NCBI GenBank assembly: GCA_041391465.1
Contig: JAWKNX010000018.1
Coordinates: 563-64,562 of the forward strand
Length of the DNA stretch: 64,000 nt
Direction: 5' to 3'
From: Bdellovibrionales bacterium
Lineage (GTDB): Bacteria; Bdellovibrionota; Bdellovibrionia; Bdellovibrionales; UBA1609
Part shown: positions 2,526 through 35,511 of the stretch, one piece after another
Position numbering within the stretch: position 1 is the first letter of the stretch
How the letters are laid out: every line of letters starts with the position of its first letter
The notes under the pieces: model-generated
The model's database searches: none
The model's input: only the letters and a program-made list of their open reading frames with translations
Told to the model about the DNA's origin: nothing
Program-made: the position numbers and the translations under genes

Positions 2526-5340
2526 AAGTCTTTTTGCGTGCTGAGCCAAAAAACCGACAGAGGGTCGAGAGTGTCTTGGTCCTCTCGACTCAATACATTG
2601 GCGCCATAGGAAATGCTCAATGGCAGAGTGAATTTGTGGAAAAACAATAACTCAAATGTAAGGCCGAGTTGGTACTCAGCAAAATCAAAAGGTTTATAAA
2701 AATCGCTAGTTGGGTCAGAAACATTGGCAAATATATTGTACTGCAAATTGATAAACGGCCCCCAACGGCGCAGACCAAAGGGAATGTAATTGAAGTAAAA
2801 ATTCTGCATAAAGCCTTTGGGGCACCCACCCCGGACATAAGCGGCTTGGGTAGAGGTCTTCATCAACATTTGTACTTAAGGTATTAAAATCAACAGTGCT
2901 CAATTGAGTCGTGAGTAAGCTGAATTGACGAGGTTGATACGTGGTTGATCACCATAGCCGCCTGCCAAACGCAAACTTAAATAGGTCCTGCGATCCAAAA
3001 TCTTTTTGGCCACTCAATGCAAATGCGCCCACACTCGTGTTTTCGTATGCGGTTGCGTTTAAATTAAAGTTAAAACTTTTTGCCGGTCGGAAACTAAGAC
3101 CCAAACTGTATTGGTAGTTAAGGTCATAAGACAATCTGGAGTACATCTCGCTGTCGCTGGCAATGCTGCTCGAACTGTAGGATTCGGTTCCGTAATATAA
3201 ACTCAAATCGATGGATTGACTCCAGAGGCCTTTCAACGTGAAGTGGGTAGCCTCAAAGTCAGTGAGGCTAGATTGTCGTACTCGAAGACAATTCATTTAT
3301 TTTTTCATCTTTGAGAGAGTAAATATAGGCCAAAAGGTAACACTGAGAGCCTGTTTTCTGAGTTGGCGAGCAGGCGAGCCCCAGTTGGTGAGACTTTCTT
3401 GCAATCTTTGATGTAGCTAAGCCAGTGTGTTTTGCAAAAGAGGATCGTTCCATGTTGTCGAGAATCCCCCAGTGAAGTATGTTTTCTCTTCAGTGCCACC
3501 GGAACCATCAGGTTCATCTTCGACAGAGATAACAAAATAGGGAAGAGTTTGACTGTACCTTAATTGTGAAAGGGGACTGTATTCTTTCACTTTCAGTGAT
3601 GCGGGGTCGACTGGCGGAGTTCGAGCTAAGATTTCATCGAGATTTTGGGGGCTGTCGATATCTCTAAAACGATAAATAACCTGGTGAGGCAGTTGTTCTG
3701 GCAATTCCTCCAAAGAGAGTGCTAGTTTTTTATATTGGTACCCTTCAGAAGTCACAGCGTTGACCAATAGGGTTGCTGCAAAGTCAGAGTAAGATAATAC
3801 TTTAGCTTCAATTATATTGTCGGCGGGGTGCATTCTGTAGGAGCGCCCATTTCTAATCAGAAATAGGCCACTTCCGCCAGGGGTGTTGCCGACAATAATG
3901 GGATCGTTTCCAATAAAATCGGTGACTTTAGCGAACTGTCCGGTGAACGAAAACACCGCTTCATCCCGTCGGATGAGATGACGTTCTTTACCGACCTGTC
4001 GAAAAAAATAGGGAGTCCCATCTGGAGAGTAAATGGCTCGCGAGTGGGCCACTCCAATGGGTTGTCCGTTTTCATAGAGAATGTTTTCACTTAAAAAACC
4101 GTTGTTCACATCAAAATATAAGACCTGATCGTCTTGAATATCTTGAATGATTTTCCCCATAGTGTCGGGATCGACTTCGTATCCCTTTTTGTACAATCCA
4201 GTAACGGTAGCGAGACCTTGTGGGGTGTCCACCATATGGCTTCCCAGAGTGTGTATGGCGCCTTTGTAAATAAAGGGTGTACCAAAGAGCCAATCTCTCG
4301 CCGTCGACAACACTTCGCCGGTTTGTTTTGAAATAAGGTGCAGCTCACGTTCATTGATGAGGTCAGTTGTGATCAACTGAATCGAATCTTTTTGCGCGGA
4401 CATGCCCGCATAGGAACGGCTAAAGGCAATCTCCTCACCATCTTGTAAAAGGATTTGCCGCTGGGCTTCAGCGGAAAAACTTTTTTGAAACTCTATGAAG
4501 AGATCGTCAAAAGTAGAACCAAAAGTTTCTTCGAAACTTTTATTGAGTAGGAAAGGGTTAATCCAGCGAGAACCATTGTTTAAGTAAAACTGATTTATTT
4601 GATCGACTCCATATCGTCTCGATAAAAATTCGAAAAAATGCCCACCAGTACTTACTTTGGCCAAATGGGAACTCGAGCGTGTCGTTCAAGAGATAAGTTT
4701 CATCGAGTTTACCGGATGCTGCCACGGCATAATCTCGGGCCCTTAGAGGTGCGCTATACAGCCGCCCACCCACATCGAAGTTGGACTCATTCCAGGTTGC
4801 ATTCCCCTCGAGCATAAATGTAGGTAGCATTAAGTTAGCGCTGTAAACATAAAAATGCAGGACAATGGGATCGCAATGTTGGTTCCTAAGATGGTCTTTA
4901 CCTGACTTGGAAACCAACTTTTGGCACTCAATTGATAAAGATGTGCGGATTCGTGGATGACGAGTGCCTCACGCACAGCTGCGCTCTCCGAACAATTCGA
5001 GCATGCCGGCACCACCTGGGTACAAAATTGTTAAATGATTTTGGAGTCATCAGCAAATGCATTGGCAATTTGGATTTTTAGTTGAGGTGAGGCCCACGCC
5101 GGTGTTCTCATCGAGGTTCCAGGAAAAGATTTTTTGTAGAGATCATGTACGCTGCGATTGAGCCGAATAAAGTCATAAATAGTGTTTTTATTTTCTGAGG
5201 AGTACGTAAATAAAGTCTTCGTCATTTATATAACGTGGTACTTGTTATCACCTGGGGTGTTGCAGCTCGGATTGCGCCAGTGGAAGAATCCCCCGTAATT
5301 AATATTATTAATCCCAGTAGTAAATTCCTCTATGGTGCAT
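2522..5340 (-). CDS. Large exported protein: gluzincin-like HExxH domain, propeller-like middle, probable C-terminal beta-barrel (several frameshifts)
   Basis: Collinear fragments 5031..5225, 4830..5015 (LVIHESAHLYQL), 4558..4917 (MLEGNATWNES), 3417..4664, 2949..3296, 2522..2869 ending in Phe. Confidence 0.6.
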
Positions 5341-25604: not shown

Positions 25605-25724
25605 AATTACAGTGAGTCGACAATCACAGCTTGAAGATCAAGCGGATAAACTTGGGGCATACCTTTATAAATTAATAAAAAATCCTTGTGGCGGAAGTTA
25701 ATTCCGCTACATTTTTGCCAGTTT
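25605..25724 (+). repeat. Direct repeat copy 2: orphan 3' fragment of the four-helix gene, terminator and one TTTGCCAG unit
   Basis: See copy 1; overlaps the putA stop codon. Confidence 0.92.
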
Positions 25725-28709
25725 ATTCTTCCTCGGCTGGAGCAAATCCACGGCGCATGGTATTTTCAGTGATCACTCGAGGCTCCATAAACTGTTTCAA
25801 GTAATCAGGGCCACCGGTTTTACTACCAACACCTGACATTTTAAAACCACCAAAAGGATGGCGATCAACAATTGCACCAGTAATCGAGCGGTTGATATAC
25901 AAATTACCCACTTCAAACTTCTTTTTTACGAGTTCAATGTTACCCGGGCTTCTTGAAAACAATCCGCCTGTCAGACCATATTCAGTGTTATTAGCGACCT
26001 CAATGGCTTCTTCAATGTCTTTAACTTTTATGACTGCCAAAACCGGTCCAAACAATTCCGTATGGGCGATTTCATCATCGGGCTTTACATCAACAACAAT
26101 AGTCGGAGGAACATAGTATCCCCCTTCAATGCGCGGTCCCTGATAAGCAACTTTGGCATAACTTCGTGATTTTTCAACGTGAGTGAGGATCTTGTTCATC
26201 GCCTCTTGGTCAACTACGGGACCGAGATAAGCCGATGGATCTTCTGCAGAAGATTGCTTTATACTCTTTGTCGTCTCAACCAATCGTTCAACAAACGGCT
26301 CATAGACTTCTTCAAGAACAATTACTCGCGAACAAGCGGAGCATTTTTGACCTTGAAACCCAAATGCCGAATAAACAGTGGATGCAACGGCTTCGTCTAA
26401 ATCGGCATCGTTGTCGATGATGAGAGCGTTTTTGCCACCCATTTCTATAATACATCTTTTTACATTTTTTGGCCGGATTGAGTGCGACCGGCTTTTTCAA
26501 TGATATGTAGGCCCACTTGTTTTGAGCCGGTAAACGCAATCATATCGATGTCTTTATGGCCGGTGAGAAACTCACCAATCTCTTCACCCAATCCAGGCAC
26601 ATACTGTACAACACCGGCAGGAAGACCGGCCTCTATCAGAAGTTTCATCAGCTCATGTGCCACAATAGAGCTCTGCTCTGCCGGCTTCATAATGACGGTA
26701 TTACCAGCGACAATGCTAGCGGTGACCATTCCAGTAAGAATCGCCAACGGGAAGTTCCAGGGGGCGATTACAAGCGAAACCCCACGCGGTTCATAAATAT
26801 AATGGCTGTGTTCGCCGAGAACTTTTCCGATTTTCTCGGGTTGGGCGAGGTGACGCATTTCTTTGGCGTAATATCTGCAAAAATCAATGGCCTCTATAAT
26901 ATCGCCATCTGCTTCAGCCCAGGGCTTGCCCACTTCAAGGACTTCTAGAGCTGAAAGTTTATATCGATCTCTTAAAATTAATTCGGCCAGCCGATCTACA
27001 AGAGCTGCTCGCTCTAAAGGATCCGTGTCGGCCCACCCCCTAAATGCCGCCTTCGCATCGACCAAAGCTTTTTCAGCCTCCGCACAGCCGGCGATACCGA
27101 TATGGCCGACCACTTCGTCTTTTTTAGACGGATTTTCTCGCGTAATTGTCCGGTCAGTGGTTACAGGCTTGTTATTAATAATTACCGGGTATGTTTGACC
27201 GAGATTCTTCTTCCACTCCTCGAGGGCGGCGTGCATTTTTTCACGTGGCTCAGGCTCAGTAAAATCCAATGGGGCTTCATTGTGAAACTCTTTTTCCAGT
27301 TGATGTTTGCCAGTGGAAACTGCGAGATCAACACTTGGGTCACGCATCAGCTGTTCCAGTTCCGCACCCTCAACAAATTTAGATCGTAAAAACGATTCGT
27401 TAGAAGTGTTTTCAAGGAGACGCCTTACTAAATAAGCCATTCCAGGGATCAGTTCACCTACGGTGGCATACTCACGTACACGATAGCCTTTTTGTACAAA
27501 GGCGGCTTTGAGTTCGTCGGCCATCCCGTAAAGCATTTGAATTTCAAAAGCATTTTTCGCAAGCCCAATCGACTCCGCATAGCAAGCACTAGCAGCCAAA
27601 GAACGAACATTATGAGAGGCTAATGCCACTTTAATGTGTGGGCAATTGTCCAAAAGCAATCGCGCACATTTTTCGTAATTTGCATCTGATTCTTGTTTAT
27701 TCGTGTAAACCGGGATCGGCCAATCTTTTTGGCTAGTGACAATATTTTCGTAATCCCAGTAAGCACCTTTGACTAAACGAATGCTAAATGGAGTCCCGCG
27801 TTCTTTGGCAAATGCGACCAGTTTTTCAGCATCGGCATAAGAGTCTCTCAGGTAGGCCTGGAGGACGATTCCCCAATGGGGATAAGATTTAAAATCAGGC
27901 TCCATGAGTAATTGTTTAAATACATCAAAAGTTAAATCCTTGTGGTGAAAGGATTCCATGTCGATATTGATAAAAACACTGCGTTCTTTGGCTAAATAAA
28001 AAATCGGTCTTAAACGCTCTTTTAATGTTTCGATGGAACCTTGCCAGTCTTTTTCATTCACTTGCGAGTAAAGGCTGGTGAGCTTTACCGACACATTGAC
28101 TTTGGGGATTTTGCCCATGGCATCCTCATCGAGGAGGGGGTTGTGTGTCCAGCTCTCAGCATCTTTACTGATCCAATTAATGATTTCTGTATAGCGAGTT
28201 TGATAATCGATCGCTTCTTTTTCGGACAGGGTGGCTTCACCTAAGAGGTCAACGGTAAACGCGATGTTGTTAGCTCGTTGGGATTTCAAAATGGGCAGTG
28301 CACTTTTTGGGTTCTCACCGGTGATAAACATCTTAGCCATTTGTTGCACATTTTTGCGAATGGCTTTTGCCATGAGCCCTGGAGCCAGTGCTCCCACTCC
28401 CACGCCCACGTTAAAAATGTTGGCAATGTCGGCACCTTTGCCCTGTAAATCATTAAAATATTCTTTAATGTGTTTAGAGACTTCTTGGTTGGAGTTCAGC
28501 GTAGGTAAAACATCGACAAAGCGAAACATGCGCGTTTTAAAATCTTCGTTTTGCATGCTCCATTCCATGATACGCCCATACCACCAGTCCTTGCGAAAAA
28601 ACCCTCCTTTGGCCGGCGCTTTTTCGGCTGCGGAGAAGATCTCTCTACCAAACTGAGTGATCTGTTGCTGATTGTTGTTTACATCCGAGTTGTTTGTTAA
28701 ATGCGACAT
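25723..28709 (-). CDS. putA: Bifunctional proline dehydrogenase / P5C dehydrogenase (frameshift near 26455)
   Basis: RLVKGAYWDYE, YLVRRLLENTSNESF, IAPWNFPLAI, FTGSKQVG, GGKNA, GQKCSACS, ELFGPV. Confidence 0.95.
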
Positions 28710-28950
28710 AGCCCCTTCTTTCTGAGCCGGAATACTGGATTTACGAAAAAACCTCGATTTAGACGACTGAGTTTCGGTTTCCACGGAATCTACCCCCACT
28801 GAAAAGGAAAAAACAGTTGCAGTATTGGGATTAATCCATGAAAAAGGCAAGAATATTAAAGGGGTAAAGTCCAATTATTGGCTGCAGCAATGCTGGATGA
28901 AGAAGCACTGCATAACCCTTTGAAATCACATGAGATTTTGAGGTTTATTT

Positions 28951-29962: not shown

Positions 29963-30649
29963 ATGGCGCAAACTAAAGTTCTCATCGTCGATGATGAGCA
30001 GGCCGTTAGAGAATATTTATCTACAGTACTAGAGGATGAAGGTTTCGTAGTCACTGCAATCTCAAGCGGTGAAACACTTTTTGATACATTGAAATCTTTT
30101 GAGCCCAATATCTTACTGATGGATTATCGAATGCCGGGGCAAAGCGGTGTCGAGCTCGTAAAATCAATTCGGACTTACGCGGATTACAAATCACTTCCCA
30201 TTATCATGGTAACGGGAGTCGCCGGTGAAGACGAAAAAGTGGCAGCCCTAGAAACCGGGGCCGATGACTACCTGGTGAAACCTTTTTTGCCAAAAGAATT
30301 AGGAGCTCGAATTCGGGCGGTACTTCGAAGGGTAAGTACAGAGCCCAGCGCAGATTCCTCGACGCTTGAAAACAAAGGTCTTTCTGTGGATCTTAAATCC
30401 CACTCTGTAAAATTAGATGGCGAAGAAATACACCTGACTTTGACAGAGTTTCGAATTCTCAGTGAGCTTTTAAAACAAAAAGGACAGGTGCTCTCTCGTG
30501 ATCGATTGCGTGAGACGGCACTGGGAAATTTAAACGTAACAGATCGAACCATCGATGTGCACATGGCCTCTTTGCGTAAAAAACTCGGCCGCTGCGGAGA
30601 TGATATTCAAACTGTTCGCGGAGTCGGGTACCGACTTTCTGTTGATTAA
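29963..30649 (+). CDS. OmpR/PhoB-family response regulator
   Basis: LIVDDE, MDYRMPG, GADDYLVKPF, RTIDVHMASLRKKL, TVRGVGYR. Confidence 0.95.
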   Translation: MAQTKVLIVDDEQAVREYLSTVLEDEGFVVTAISSGETLFDTLKSFEPNILLMDYRMPGQSGVELVKSIRTYADYKSLPIIMVTGVAGEDEKVAALETGADDYLVKPFLPKELGARIRAVLRRVSTEPSADSSTLENKGLSVDLKSHSVKLDGEEIHLTLTEFRILSELLKQKGQVLSRDRLRETALGNLNVTDRTIDVHMASLRKKLGRCGDDIQTVRGVGYRLSVD

Positions 30650-30662
30650 TAACAAGAAAATT

Positions 30663-30780
30663 AAAAAGGCAGCAGGAGGCCGGGGAGCTTGCTCCCCTTC
30701 CTGGCGGTGGTGGGTTGATTGTGGTGGGCTGGTGGCTCTTTGCAGGACTCCACGATTGTGGTGCGAGCCGGTAAGTTACT
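30663..30780 (-). ncRNA. Candidate structured small RNA (~118 nt)
   Basis: sigma54 motif upstream; 5' hairpin GGCTC-GCA-CCAC/AATC/GTGG..TGC..GAGCC; C/A-rich linker; 3' hairpin CAGGA..GGGGAGC/AA/GCTCCCC..TCCTG; T5 tail. Confidence 0.6.
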
Positions 30781-30790
30781 GACCTTATAG

Positions 30791-30807
30791 AGCAAGCCCG
30801 GGGCCAA
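30791..30807 (-). promoter_or_regulatory. sigma54 promoter candidate for the sRNA
   Basis: Minus strand TTGGCCCCGGGCTTGCT, GG-N10-GC; predicted +1 near 30780. Confidence 0.6.
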
Positions 30808-31093
30808 CTTTATTGGTGTCATTCTGACCTGAAGTCCAAACAAGGTGAGTTATAAGCTTTAAATATAAGGATGGATCGGGGTTCTGGAGCGAAACGACAC
30901 CCTGTAATCCTTTCTGTTCGTTTTGATCATGGTTTGTATAAGATAAATTTATAATTAAAAGCGATGTTCAATGAACATGTCGTACTCTCTCGCTGTCTGT
31001 CTTTAGTCTAGAAATCCAGCTGATCCTTTCAACAGGCCCCTTCCAGGACAAGAATATTCATAACCAACGAACTTTCTATAACGGGGTGAATCA

Positions 31094-32517
31094 GTGGTTA
31101 AAAACCAAATTCAAAAAATTATTTTCATTTTGCTAATCAGTTGCAGTGCCGCAGCCAACGAAACTTCAGATCGACAAGAGAAACATAACTTGGCCACCGA
31201 GTCTTTTTAAGCTTCACTTTTTTCATAAAGGTCGTGGCATGATGATGTCGCCGGACCTCATTCATGTTTATCAAAAGCAATTGGATAAAATTGAGCCCGG
31301 CGCTTCCTCCATGGATCCGGCAAAGTTTATTCAAAATCGTTGGGGACTTATTTCTGGGGAAAACGGAGTTTATGGACTCAACACCGTTAGGTATGAAGAC
31401 TTTGATGTGGGTGCTGTTGGATGTGTTGTTTGCCATAGCGGAAAAGCCGCTGGGGAATTTATAGTTGGGCTGGGCTCAAAAAATGTAGACGTTGTCCGCA
31501 TGGCCAAAGATCTTAATCGCCTCGAGAAGTGGTGGAAGGTATTTGGCAAAAAAATAAAGAGAAATCAGAAGCCTATAAAGATGTAGAGCAAGCGGCTCTT
31601 TATTTTTCGGAATATCTGTCTAATAAAAAAGTAGGGAACCTCACTCAAGGGTTGGTCCCGGTCTCTTTTATTAAAGGGTGGTTCTATCGGGTGAGAGGCG
31701 AAGAGTTGCCGGAAACCACTCCTCGGGGTCAGGTCAAGGTGCCATTTCTTTGGGGCTACGGAGAAAAAGAAAAGTGGGTCAGTTTTGCGACGGCTACGGC
31801 AACGGCAGTGAATTGGGATGGGCTGTGGCCGTGGAATTGGCTGCTGGGCAAACTGTAGAGTCGGTTCGCGAATATTATCCGAAGGCTGTTGCGGCAGAAA
31901 AAGCCTTTGAAGACTTTCTACCGCCCAAATATCCATTTTCTATCGATAGCGAAATGGCAGCCAAAGGAAAAACAATTTTTAATCAGACCTGTGCTAAATG
32001 CCACGGAGAATATCAAAAGGACGAAAACGGATATCCTATTTATGAGCCACCCCAATTCGTCAATTGGAAGCATGTTAAAACCGATTACGATCGCCTGGAA
32101 GGCAACAATGAAGAGTTCAATTCTCGTGTCGATTCAAACCCATTAAGTGACATTCTATTTCGCAATCTCAAGCAAGAGGGCTTTTTGCTCCACGGCTCGA
32201 AGGGTTTGGTCACGATTTCCCTATCTTCATAATGCCTCTGTTCCAAATATGTTGAGTCTGCTCTCTCCACCTGAAGAGCGTCCAGAGGTCTTCTCCTTGG
32301 AAGACGCAGGAGCGGGAGCGCTTCGACGAGGTGGCCATGGGGCTAACTCTCCCGAATTCAGCCCTCGGCCGGGCAAACCTCAAGCGAAAAGCTATATTTG
32401 AGATCGACAGGTCTACTATACGAAGCGCGAGGGGCACTCCAGTGAGGGGCATGACTTCTCTACCAATATTCCTTTGGAGGACAAAAAGCTATTATCGAGT
32501 ACCTCAAAACTCTTTAA
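31094..32517 (+). CDS. Di-heme c-type cytochrome, RoxA/MauG-like (several frameshifts)
   Basis: CVVCH and CAKCH heme motifs, FPYLHNASVP, C-terminal EYLKTL-stop. Confidence 0.8.
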
Positions 32518-32855: not shown

Positions 32856-33493
32856 ATGAGCCGACGTCCCTGTAGCTTGAAATTAAAGTACCTATTGCGA
32901 ATCACCTCGTTGATATTTTTGGCAATGGGTGTGGTGGCCTGTCAAAAAGAGATCCATCCGGAGCCTCTTGTAATTTCGTACAGAACTCCTATGAACAACG
33001 GGTATCTTGGGGGAGTCGAACCTTGGACTTCTATGTCCATGAATCAGTTCCACAAGATTATTATATGATAATTCGTGAAGCGGCCAAAAAATGGAACGAA
33101 GCCATTGGCCGAGAAGTCATTCGCATTGAAATTGAAGGTGTGGCCGGCGATATCAACGACCGACGCGACAACATTTCAATGATTTATCTATTGAGCCAAT
33201 GGGATAACGACAATATTCGTGAACAGGCAAGAACCAGTGTGCGTTGGCGTGGAACGGAAATCATCGAGTCCGACATCTTATTAAATGATGAGTATTTTAA
33301 TTTTTCTGTGGATGTGAAAACCCCTCAATTCTACGTGGACTTGGAGAGTTTATTAATTCATGAAATGGGCCACGCGCTGGGCTTAGCCCATGTTGAAGAG
33401 ACGGGGAGTGTAATGTATCCCCAGCTCGCACGCGGTCAGGAGAGAAGGTTGGTGGCTGAAATCGACCTGGAATCCTTAAGTTGCGAGTATTGA
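32856..33493 (+). CDS. Matrixin (M10/metzincin) lipoprotein metalloprotease (frameshift near 33020)
   Basis: VVAC lipobox; HEMGHALGLAH and Met-turn SVMYP. Confidence 0.88.
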
Positions 33494-33834: not shown

Positions 33835-35511
33835 TTAACCTTCTGCCTCATTGGTAATTAATAGATCCTTGTTAACCTCAGGCTCTGGAAGTTGAGAGCC
33901 GGTTTCCCATTTAGCTATATTTTCTCGGTGAATTTGCGCAATATCAGTCGCTTGTCTTTTTGTTACTGTACCCAACTTTGGAATAACAACACTCAATTGA
34001 CCGTTTTCATAATGACGATTGATATGCTTTTCTGAAACGGGATGATTCAGCTGAATTTCTTCGCGAAAAGTTTGATAGTTATTGGTTTCCAAAGTACGTC
34101 CATCTTTTGTGACTTTATCTTTAAATCGACGTTTCCCTGAGACCACTAATTTATCCTCTTTAACAAAGACATCAATGTTGTCCTTTTCGTGTTCTGGAAT
34201 ATTCACCTCAAACACATACCCGCTAGCTTGTTCTGTTAGTGAATTACCAAGGCCTTGCAGGCGATAAAAAGGGTCTTCTGTAGAATCCTGGTAAGGGGCA
34301 TGTTCTTTCATGAGGTCCACTTTTTGTTGGACTACGGCATCGATATATCGATCTTTTTGTTGCCGGAGCGCCTTACTCTGCAATTGCTTGTTCGTCGAGT
34401 ACACTCGATCAAATTCGTTTTTCTGATTGGCCAACTCTTTACTAAAAATTTGGTCCTGTCTCGCCATCTTTTCTCTGTGTAATTTGGCGGATCGCTCTTG
34501 CTCTACGATTTGCCGCTTCTTTTGTTCGTTCAGCTCAGATTCGTGGAGTTTTTTCTGCTCTTCAAACTTGTGGTCGTATTGCTTTTCTTGAAGCACTAGT
34601 TTTTGTTCGCCTTCTTGATGGCTTCTCTTGAATTCGTTACGGTAGTTTTTTTGAATACGCTCTATTTCGGATCGGGATTGCTCTTGTTCGTGTTTTATTT
34701 GAATGTCATTTTTTTCTTGTAGACTCATTAATTTGAATTCATTTTCTTTTTTGGTCTTGGCAACTTCTTCACGAGTTCTTGTTTTTAAATTAGAAATTCT
34801 CTGGTTGGACTCAAGGCGCTCAATTTCAGATTGTTGCCCATGTTTGGCGCGCAAATCATTGATCCTTTCAAGGCCTTCAATGCGTTGTTTTTCATATTGA
34901 TTTTGATATTTTGAGCTTTGCTCTTTAATGCGTTTTTGTTGGGCTTCATTAATTTCTCGTAACTCAGCGTTTGATTTCTTTTTAGTCGTATCGATCTTCC
35001 GAGTGGATTCTGTACTGATATGTTCTATTTTTTCTGCTTGCTGTTTACGATAGTTGTTTATATGTCTGTTTTGGTCAGCTTGAACTTCCTGCATTCTCTT
35101 TTGGGAGTTTTCGAGAACCCGCTTTTCTCTCTGTTGAGTGCGTGCTATTGAGGCCTCAACATTTTCCTCCTTGGTTTCAAGGGCGGCCTTTAATTGTTCA
35201 ATTTGGCCCTGTCCAGTTTCTTTTTGGTTTTTTATTTGCTTTGAATAGGCATCTTTCAAATTTCTTAATTTGTAATCATGTTGTTCCTGCAGAGCTTCGA
35301 TCTTTTTTTTGGACTGCGATTTGATGTGGTTAACTGCAGCAGCGCCGCTAGTTCGAGCTTTGGCTTCACGTGTGGCATTGCTGTCTTTGATTTGTTGCAA
35401 ATTACGGTTGTGTTGCTCAATGACCTCTTGACGCTTACTTCTATACTGATCGTTCAGCTGTTGCAGATCATTTTGATTGCGTTGTCTTGCAAAATTCACA
35501 TCGTTTGCCAT
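33835..35511 (-). CDS. Long coiled-coil protein with a C-terminal Hsp20/alpha-crystallin domain
   Basis: About 410 aa of Q/E/K/R-rich helical sequence, then YVFEVNIPEHEKDNIDV...LVVSGKR...YENGQLSVVIPK. Confidence 0.8.
   Translation of the reverse strand: MANDVNFARQRNQNDLQQLNDQYRSKRQEVIEQHNRNLQQIKDSNATREAKARTSGAAAVNHIKSQSKKKIEALQEQHDYKLRNLKDAYSKQIKNQKETGQGQIEQLKAALETKEENVEASIARTQQREKRVLENSQKRMQEVQADQNRHINNYRKQQAEKIEHISTESTRKIDTTKKKSNAELREINEAQQKRIKEQSSKYQNQYEKQRIEGLERINDLRAKHGQQSEIERLESNQRISNLKTRTREEVAKTKKENEFKLMSLQEKNDIQIKHEQEQSRSEIERIQKNYRNEFKRSHQEGEQKLVLQEKQYDHKFEEQKKLHESELNEQKKRQIVEQERSAKLHREKMARQDQIFSKELANQKNEFDRVYSTNKQLQSKALRQQKDRYIDAVVQQKVDLMKEHAPYQDSTEDPFYRLQGLGNSLTEQASGYVFEVNIPEHEKDNIDVFVKEDKLVVSGKRRFKDKVTKDGRTLETNNYQTFREEIQLNHPVSEKHINRHYENGQLSVVIPKLGTVTKRQATDIAQIHRENIAKWETGSQLPEPEVNKDLLITNEAEG

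Follow-up and report, generated by a model that had tools for sequence, protein, structure and literature searches.

The window, by which we mean the whole analysed stretch of 64,000 nucleotides from a Bdellovibrionales bacterium (contig JAWKNX010000018.1), carries on its minus strand a predicted small RNA gene that converges on the gene of a PhoB/OmpR-type response regulator (Table 1). The letters quoted in the original prediction for the promoter, the hairpins, the linker and the tail were all found at the minus-strand positions given for them, and the -24/-12 spacing of the putative sigma-54 promoter leads exactly to A30780 as +1. As first described, CACCACAAUC occurs twice in the RNA (at 30763 and 30726) and CACCA four times, no start-led open reading frame lies inside it, and the segment is GC-rich (60% G+C versus 37% upstream). 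Two structural details had to be corrected: the second hairpin is present, with a real loop of four nucleotides (CAAG) instead of AA, and the GCA/UGC helix holds within the own genus, its place being taken elsewhere by an asymmetric internal loop. A covariance model search of the own genome (G000, 58% complete) found the RNA gene in single copy.

Table 1. Features of the RNA locus in the window and of the candidate activator operon.
Feature	Position	Strand	Remarks
Small RNA gene	30663..30780	-	predicted 118 nt, from +1 A30780 to U5 tail; covariance model 86 bits
5' domain, helices P1 and P2	30734..30769	-	covariation, column counts
Helix P1	30769-30765 (GGCUC) pairs with 30738-30734 (GAGCC)	-	
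Helix P2, CCAC-AAUC-GUGG	30761-30750	-	NNUC loop
Single-stranded G-poor linker, 30 nt	30704..30733	-	two CCYRYC motifs
CCYRYC motifs of the linker	30728-30723 and 30714-30709	-	
3' hairpin P3 and U5 tail	30663..30703	-	terminator-like in the window
P3 hairpin proper; U5	30703-30670; 30667-30663	-	
Putative sigma-54 -24/-12 promoter, TTGGC-N-TTGCT	30791..30807	-	GG at -25/-24, GC at -13/-12
Promoter-proximal palindrome, centre ~-42	30815..30830	-	15.5 bits; 12.5 with own genus excluded
Distal enhancer palindrome, centre ~-113	30886..30901	.	17.7 bits
Convergent PhoB/OmpR-type response regulator gene	29963..30649	+	not a sigma-54 activator
Matrixin (Peptidase_M10) gene	33023..33493	+	separated from the RNA by a cytochrome-c insertion
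Operon: radical-SAM/SPASM maturase, CHASE2 histidine kinase, NtrC-family activator	L237:441-5375 (genome G039); L445-L464		preceded by the palindrome

Taken alone, the window RNA does not fold more stably than shuffled versions of itself (z = -0.77), so that the case for a structure rests on covariation. Homologues were aligned from 90 loci, from which one without a P2 call and six near-duplicates were removed, leaving 83 sequences. In this sequence-only alignment both 5' helices covary, as a check on homologues proposed with the original prediction had asked, with two-sided changes at 10 of the 10 pairs of P1 and P2. The two helices are paired in 86.1% versus 74.2% after shuffling, a comparison in which the rows are anchored on P2, favouring P2 pairing, and the relatives are not independent. 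The covariation score reached 0.382 against 0.162 in shuffled data (0/500) and at most 0.102 when the helices were slid, and P2 was recovered unaided by RNAalifold. When 93 sequences were aligned by fitting to the model, pairing reached 94.6% in P1, 99.5% in P2 and 64.9% in P3, the length and register of which vary among homologues. The P2 loop reads NNUC and the asymmetric internal loop keeps a conserved YC; the loop C, in part selected for, and the final C of the second linker motif are found in 93/93 sequences. An extra small hairpin lies between +1 and P1 in L140, L143-L152, L159, L163, L166, L172 and L188.

The intrinsic terminator with U tail announced for the 3' end stands for the window and fails as a general feature, a crude count giving a U tract after P3 in about 31 of the 83 homologues; since it is absent in over half of them, many would end by other means. 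The scan for sigma-70 promoters and terminators listed no minus-strand terminator at the window RNA, the stem of which is interrupted. The homologues of family f10 end in a GCGCGCG run without U tract.

A DNA search revealed homologues in 12 of 61 relatives, seven of which (the own genome included) show the full architecture. Two models were then applied to 151 Bdellovibrionales genomes: R1, based on sequence only and including the promoter, matched 100, and R2, based on structure and excluding the promoter, matched 104 with one strong copy each. The sole exception is G077, with two markedly different strong copies (C152:8818-8929 and C21:471-587). In a phylum-wide sample, R2 matched 25 of the 28 genomes belonging to the order; outside it, weak matches alone were obtained (6/123 genomes with R1 and 12/123 with R2, all with E values of 0.003-0.045), which are treated as chance. 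A pattern of the core, devoid of promoter bases, was also run on genome contigs and gave 100 loci, 80 of them titled. With the later model, all 18 titled Bdellovibrionota loci scored 54.5-87 bits and all 62 others at most 24.7 bits, and five non-Bdellovibrionota genomes with pattern matches stayed below 20 bits. By the titles of the records that contain homologues, the family belongs to Bdellovibrionales. A loose scan of viral contigs gave at least 120 loci, the best of the 80 rescored reaching 18 bits. Absences are clustered: within family f2 the RNA is missing from 23 of 26 genomes, and several small genomes lack it too. Ten RNA-negative genomes have kept the matrixin gene; even with the filters removed, no RNA turned up at a distance of up to 1.5 kb from that gene (best E 1.4), which suggests that the RNA was truly lost there.

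These data bear directly on the proposal that the segment is merely fortuitous or belongs to a dispersed DNA repeat. The folding z-score of -0.77 is what such a feature would give; the single copy, the synteny, the compensatory changes and the bimodal scores (at least 54.5 against at most 24.7 bits) speak so strongly against it that its probability is practically nil. Two of the observations that would have spoken against the original prediction, a dispersed repeat and a lack of structural conservation in relatives, were thus not made, and the locus is very probably a real non-coding RNA gene, stand-alone and conserved in most of the sampled Bdellovibrionales genomes.

Among the 40 listed of 192 candidates, the window promoter ranks first by sigma-54 core score (28.6 bits, computed with the own genus excluded from training). 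A strict -24/-12 element was present within 60 nt at 14 of the 18 Bdellovibrionota loci, with one-base variants at the other four, and at 0 of the 62 titled loci from elsewhere, the pattern itself being promoter-free. Eight of the 83 homologues (L160, L180, L181, L183, L190, L194, L198 and L199) lack a sigma-54 element in the 300 nt that precede P2; a longer 5' extension or a promoter switch are candidate readings. The gene rpoN occurs in the own genome and in 148 of the 151 genomes of the order, and since it is nearly universal its co-occurrence is uninformative. A palindrome of about 16 nt, GggnCAAAaTGACACC, is common to the upstream regions, and the window has both copies of it. Cross-validation recovered the copy near -42 in 48 of 72 homologues (1 when shuffled) and the one between -80 and -160 in 52 of 72 (2 when shuffled). 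The distal copy is likely the site of an NtrC-family activator.

The homologue L152 belongs to an organism with public RNA-seq, of which 8 of the 24 listed runs were examined, all as assembled contigs. Its predicted +1 is 3183, and in four runs of one study (P3) contigs end at 3184, 3181, 3181 and 3183. Other contigs stop 23-48 nt short, at 3160 (study P4) and at 3159 and 3135 (study P5), and one run (P2) has coverage everywhere and is DNA-like. On the divergent matrixin side, where +1 is predicted at 3461, the contigs of three runs from two studies begin at 3463, and those of the other runs further in. That four of the eight runs, all belonging to one study, have contig ends within 2 bases of the predicted start of L152 is a weak hint of expression, because contigs show neither strand nor level, and gaps between them are no proof of silence.

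The genes around the RNA were compared at 89 loci. The link to the convergent regulator holds in the window and does not extend to a general partnership, the regulator being adjacent at 34 loci, whereas a matrixin gene is among the first three open reading frames on either side at 77, mostly divergent upstream. The gene putA is a neighbour at 25 loci and hslO is also common. A sigma-54 consensus was found near the matrixin start at 32 of 72 loci. This neighbourhood allows two readings in cis to be weighed. According to the first, the RNA is the 5' leader (riboswitch or attenuator) of the downstream gene, as the missing U tract in over half of the homologues and the putA or dehydrogenase gene following on the same strand in some lineages would permit. 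The downstream gene is however variable, and convergent in the window and at most of the 34 regulator-flanked loci; a conserved alternative fold is absent, and several loci carry the entire unit in inverted yet intact form, which argues against a role in cis. A leader is consequently very unlikely. According to the second, the RNA would be an antisense or terminator element for the convergent regulator gene, the stop codon of which lies 13 nt from the RNA end in the window, and RNA-seq contigs extend from the convergent gene through the homologue. The RNA does not overlap the regulator coding sequence, the unit has its own putative promoter and enhancers, and the regulator is adjacent at 34 of the 89 loci only; with this synteny, such an element is highly improbable.

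Genome G039 was examined in full (109 tiles). It codes for eight sigma-54 activators, five of which were profiled for co-occurrence with the RNA. One of them, at L237:3858-5375, occurs in 30 of the 33 genomes with the RNA and in 7 of the 32 without it, these genomes having been chosen by RNA status and the counts being uncorrected for kinship or genome reduction. On a set of 17 positive and 21 negative genomes, the four other activators gave 16/13, 17/20, 16/10 and 16/20, compared with 15/4 for this one. The RNA-positive genomes in which it was not found are G000 (58% complete), G063 (83%) and G107 (97%). The seven RNA-negative genomes keeping it comprise three fragmented assemblies and four members of a single genus (G083, G137, G157 and G161, genus g62), which offer themselves as natural strains for comparison.

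The palindrome points independently to the same gene. With its own RNA promoter excluded from training, G039 has its two highest-scoring intergenic palindromes (18.7 and 17.9 bits) at the operon of this activator; two coding-region sites reached 19.6 bits and the other seven activator loci at most 8.4 bits. Of 20 further genomes, 13 have a palindrome of at least 13 bits immediately before this operon, the background being 0.2 per 5.7 kb; among the remaining seven, it is just under 13 bits in two, inside the first gene in one and weak or absent in four. The kinase paired with this NtrC-family activator carries a CHASE2 domain. There is also a second CHASE2/NtrC pair, paralogous to the first and nearly identical to it in the DNA-binding end, which may share the palindrome site; the activator paralogue is present in G000. 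The regulator at L237:3858-5375, paired with the CHASE2 kinase, is thus probably the activator of the RNA. In the corresponding mechanism, the kinase would phosphorylate the activator, which would then bind the palindrome and open both the RNA promoter and that of its own operon, giving a positive feedback; the divergent matrixin promoter is possibly opened too.

The same palindrome is found at four other sigma-54 promoters, those of G000:C21:1910-2281 (+), L246:16225-16701 (-), L241:18783-19346 (+) and L232:17365-17997 (+), the products of which are small and secreted-looking, three of them being Cys-rich; they are possible members of the co-regulon or possible substrates of the maturase. A near-identical palindrome-like site precedes orthologous-looking genes of 122-126 aa at L253:2613 (G039) and G000:C7:132764, whose products, we assume, resemble DksA/TraR.

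The operon is led by a radical-SAM/SPASM gene in G039 and at 10 of 20 other loci. Its best match is the PapB ranthipeptide maturase model, below the cut-off (185.6 of 340 bits), and no precursor peptide gene was found beside the operon. It is conceivable, though improbable, that the RNA is the output arm of a hitherto undescribed peptide-signal circuit in predatory bacteria, in which the autoregulated maturase/kinase/activator operon both makes and senses a cross-linked peptide. In this reading the circuit would then fire the RNA along with the small Cys-rich secreted proteins and the matrixin lipoprotein. If the peptide circuit were true, it would be quorum-sensing-like, with a Qrr-like switch working without Hfq and the fixed-spaced CCYRYC pair being read by some chaperone or target.

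The linkers of the homologues are made of 40.6% C, 32.5% A and 6.9% G. At least one CCYRYC is present in 71 of 83 linkers, compared with 21.7 in dinucleotide shuffles (maximum 30), and at least two in 45 of 83, compared with 3.2 (maximum 9); in 38 of these 45 two-motif homologues the motifs are spaced by 11-14 nt. The CACCAC/CACCACAAUC repeat to which a function had been attributed was not retained, since one copy is part of the covarying P2 stem and CACCAC occurs in 9 of 83 linkers as against 7.2 in shuffles, without enrichment. In consequence, of the stand-alone, structured, sigma-54-type small RNA proposed from the sequence, the RNA itself is upheld and the role of its repeat is dropped. 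The GUGGUG expected in targets gives way to GRYRGG, because the conserved element is CCYRYC present twice. The anti-Shine-Dalgarno CCUCC is found in 0 of 83 linkers when 9.1 were expected, and therefore no plain anti-Shine-Dalgarno seed is present. Repeated, conserved and unpaired C-rich motifs are the hallmark of small RNAs with C-rich seeds of the RsaE/RoxS/LhrC/6C kind, and the linker carries them. The degeneracy of the motif (C/U, A/G, C/U) could reflect a tolerance of G-U wobble against a fixed GGUGGG; this pattern is ambiguous, as transitions are the commonest changes anyway and a protein could read it equally.

On this basis the two exposed CCYRYC motifs would pair with G-rich GRYRGG stretches of other RNAs, P1/P2 and P3 protecting the ends and perhaps docking a protein. 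Hfq was found in 0 of 5 genomes, the controls being positive, and CsrA in 4 of 5. Target searches had low power, with two genomes, one of them 58% complete, and rough start calls. Among 652 orthologue pairs between G000 and G039, GRYRGG was near both starts in 3 (3.2 expected), GGURGG was shared near both starts in one, probably as upstream codons, and no conserved double site was detected between the two genomes. Duplex ranking of targets in a single genome gave noise driven by wrong start calls. The neighbour genes were no better than background as targets, beyond a stronger Shine-Dalgarno sequence, and the start regions of the activator operon itself were rejected as targets.

Provided that the RNA is real, its binding to a protein is the less probable mode of action, and we lean towards base-pairing instead. 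In a particular form of the former, the gene and promoter are the same and the RNA is a decoy or scaffold, the motif pair, the P2 loop and the YC of the internal loop being read by a dimeric or two-domain protein. CsrB and CrcZ bind proteins through other motifs, and known decoys carry many of them. The 11-14 nt spacing in 38/45 homologues fits a dimeric protein equally well, the loop C (partly selected) and final C of motif 2 are invariant in 93/93 sequences, the anti-Shine-Dalgarno is avoided and a conserved mRNA target was not found. Against the decoy, there are only two motifs; the three GGA of the window RNA all lie in or at stems, so that the unpaired GGA of a CsrA decoy is absent, in spite of the CsrA found in 4 of 5 genomes; and contig depths, a poor measure, show no massively abundant RNA. 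A decoy or scaffold is thus rather unlikely. The complete pairing proposal, namely a conserved sigma-54 small RNA which is activated by the CHASE2/NtrC pair and regulates RNAs in trans by CCYRYC-GRYRGG pairing without Hfq, is in our judgement slightly on the probable side.

A comparison with Rfam gave no match for the window at the gathering score, for positions 30600-31200 at E up to 10 or for six homologue loci at E up to 1, in agreement with the novelty first claimed. The RNA was rightly set apart from 6S RNA (RF00013), which lies elsewhere in 5 of 5 genomes, the own included. The Pxr model (RF01812) did not match the own genome or the region (E up to 10) or the six homologue loci (E up to 1), and as it was also silent in ten genomes around G290, the genome-search route is one without positive control.

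In its control, the RNA resembles several known systems. Qrr1-5 (LuxO) and CrcZ (CbrAB) are Hfq-dependent small RNAs produced through a sensor kinase and a sigma-54 activator. The same chain from kinase to activator to RNA is a candidate here; by contrast, Hfq was found in 0 of 5 genomes, and no sequence or structure match to Qrr or CrcZ was obtained in Rfam. According to three reports (PMC5684412, PMC5568312, PMC11928866), Pxr of Myxococcus xanthus, with PxrK/PxrR, is likewise about 110 nt long, with a sigma-54 promoter, an upstream enhancer region and a cognate NtrC-like two-component system (candidate here), in an Hfq-less predatory lineage; its primer sequences show a C run in the 5' part and its targets are unproven. 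The promoter and enhancer sites are present here as sequence consensus. Pxr differs in having three stem-loops, the present RNA being built of two hairpin domains with a single-stranded linker of two motifs between them, and in lying directly behind its activator gene, where this RNA is unlinked to the activator and has matrixin, OmpR-type regulator, putA and hslO genes as neighbours. In anatomy, the closest likeness is to RsaE and the UCCC small RNAs of Staphylococcus and Bacillus (PMC2790875), which combine a 5' hairpin, unpaired repeated C-rich motifs and a 3' hairpin, are Hfq-independent and offer a precedent for C-rich seeds; the present RNA departs from RsaE in using CCYRYC with an internal purine instead of UCCC, in avoiding CCUCC, in its putative sigma-54 control and in lacking any Rfam similarity. 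By analogy, the control would be Pxr/Qrr/CrcZ-like and the anatomy RsaE-like, yet no match placed the RNA in any of these families.

Other intergenic RNAs of the same order are merRNA and APsRNA1-7 of Bdellovibrio bacteriovorus (PMC3627812). By eye, none of these eight printed sequences has the core or the linker. That study concerns attack-phase RNAs, growth-phase RNAs having been beyond its mapping, and calls the eight lineage-restricted. No description of the present RNA was found in the literature covered, subscription journals lying outside its scope, so that prior annotation is possible, and a 2026 preprint on non-coding families does not mention Bdellovibrio in its main text. The RNA apparently represents a small-RNA family of Bdellovibrionales that is not yet catalogued, and its candidate activator is well supported. 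The signals of the switch between hunting and growth in Bdellovibrio-type predators are poorly known, and the eight attack-phase RNAs just mentioned (PMC3627812) are the only small RNAs for them that were found in print. The present RNA extends across the order and has a defined structure, and candidates can be named for its activator, for the site bound and for the regulon. With a homologue in an organism covered by public RNA-seq, it would be a clean case for small-RNA action in a lineage whose examined genomes yielded no Hfq.

Within the window, a cytochrome-c-like gene broken into pieces over several frames lies between the RNA and the matrixin gene (31146-32450), an insertion not seen at the same place in other loci. 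At 25723-28874 (-), putA is split into two open reading frames of 804 and 239 aa. The split putA and the broken cytochrome gene suggest indel errors in the assembly. At 33835-35511 (-) lies a gene coding for a coiled-coil-like protein of 558 aa whose C terminus carries an Hsp20 domain.
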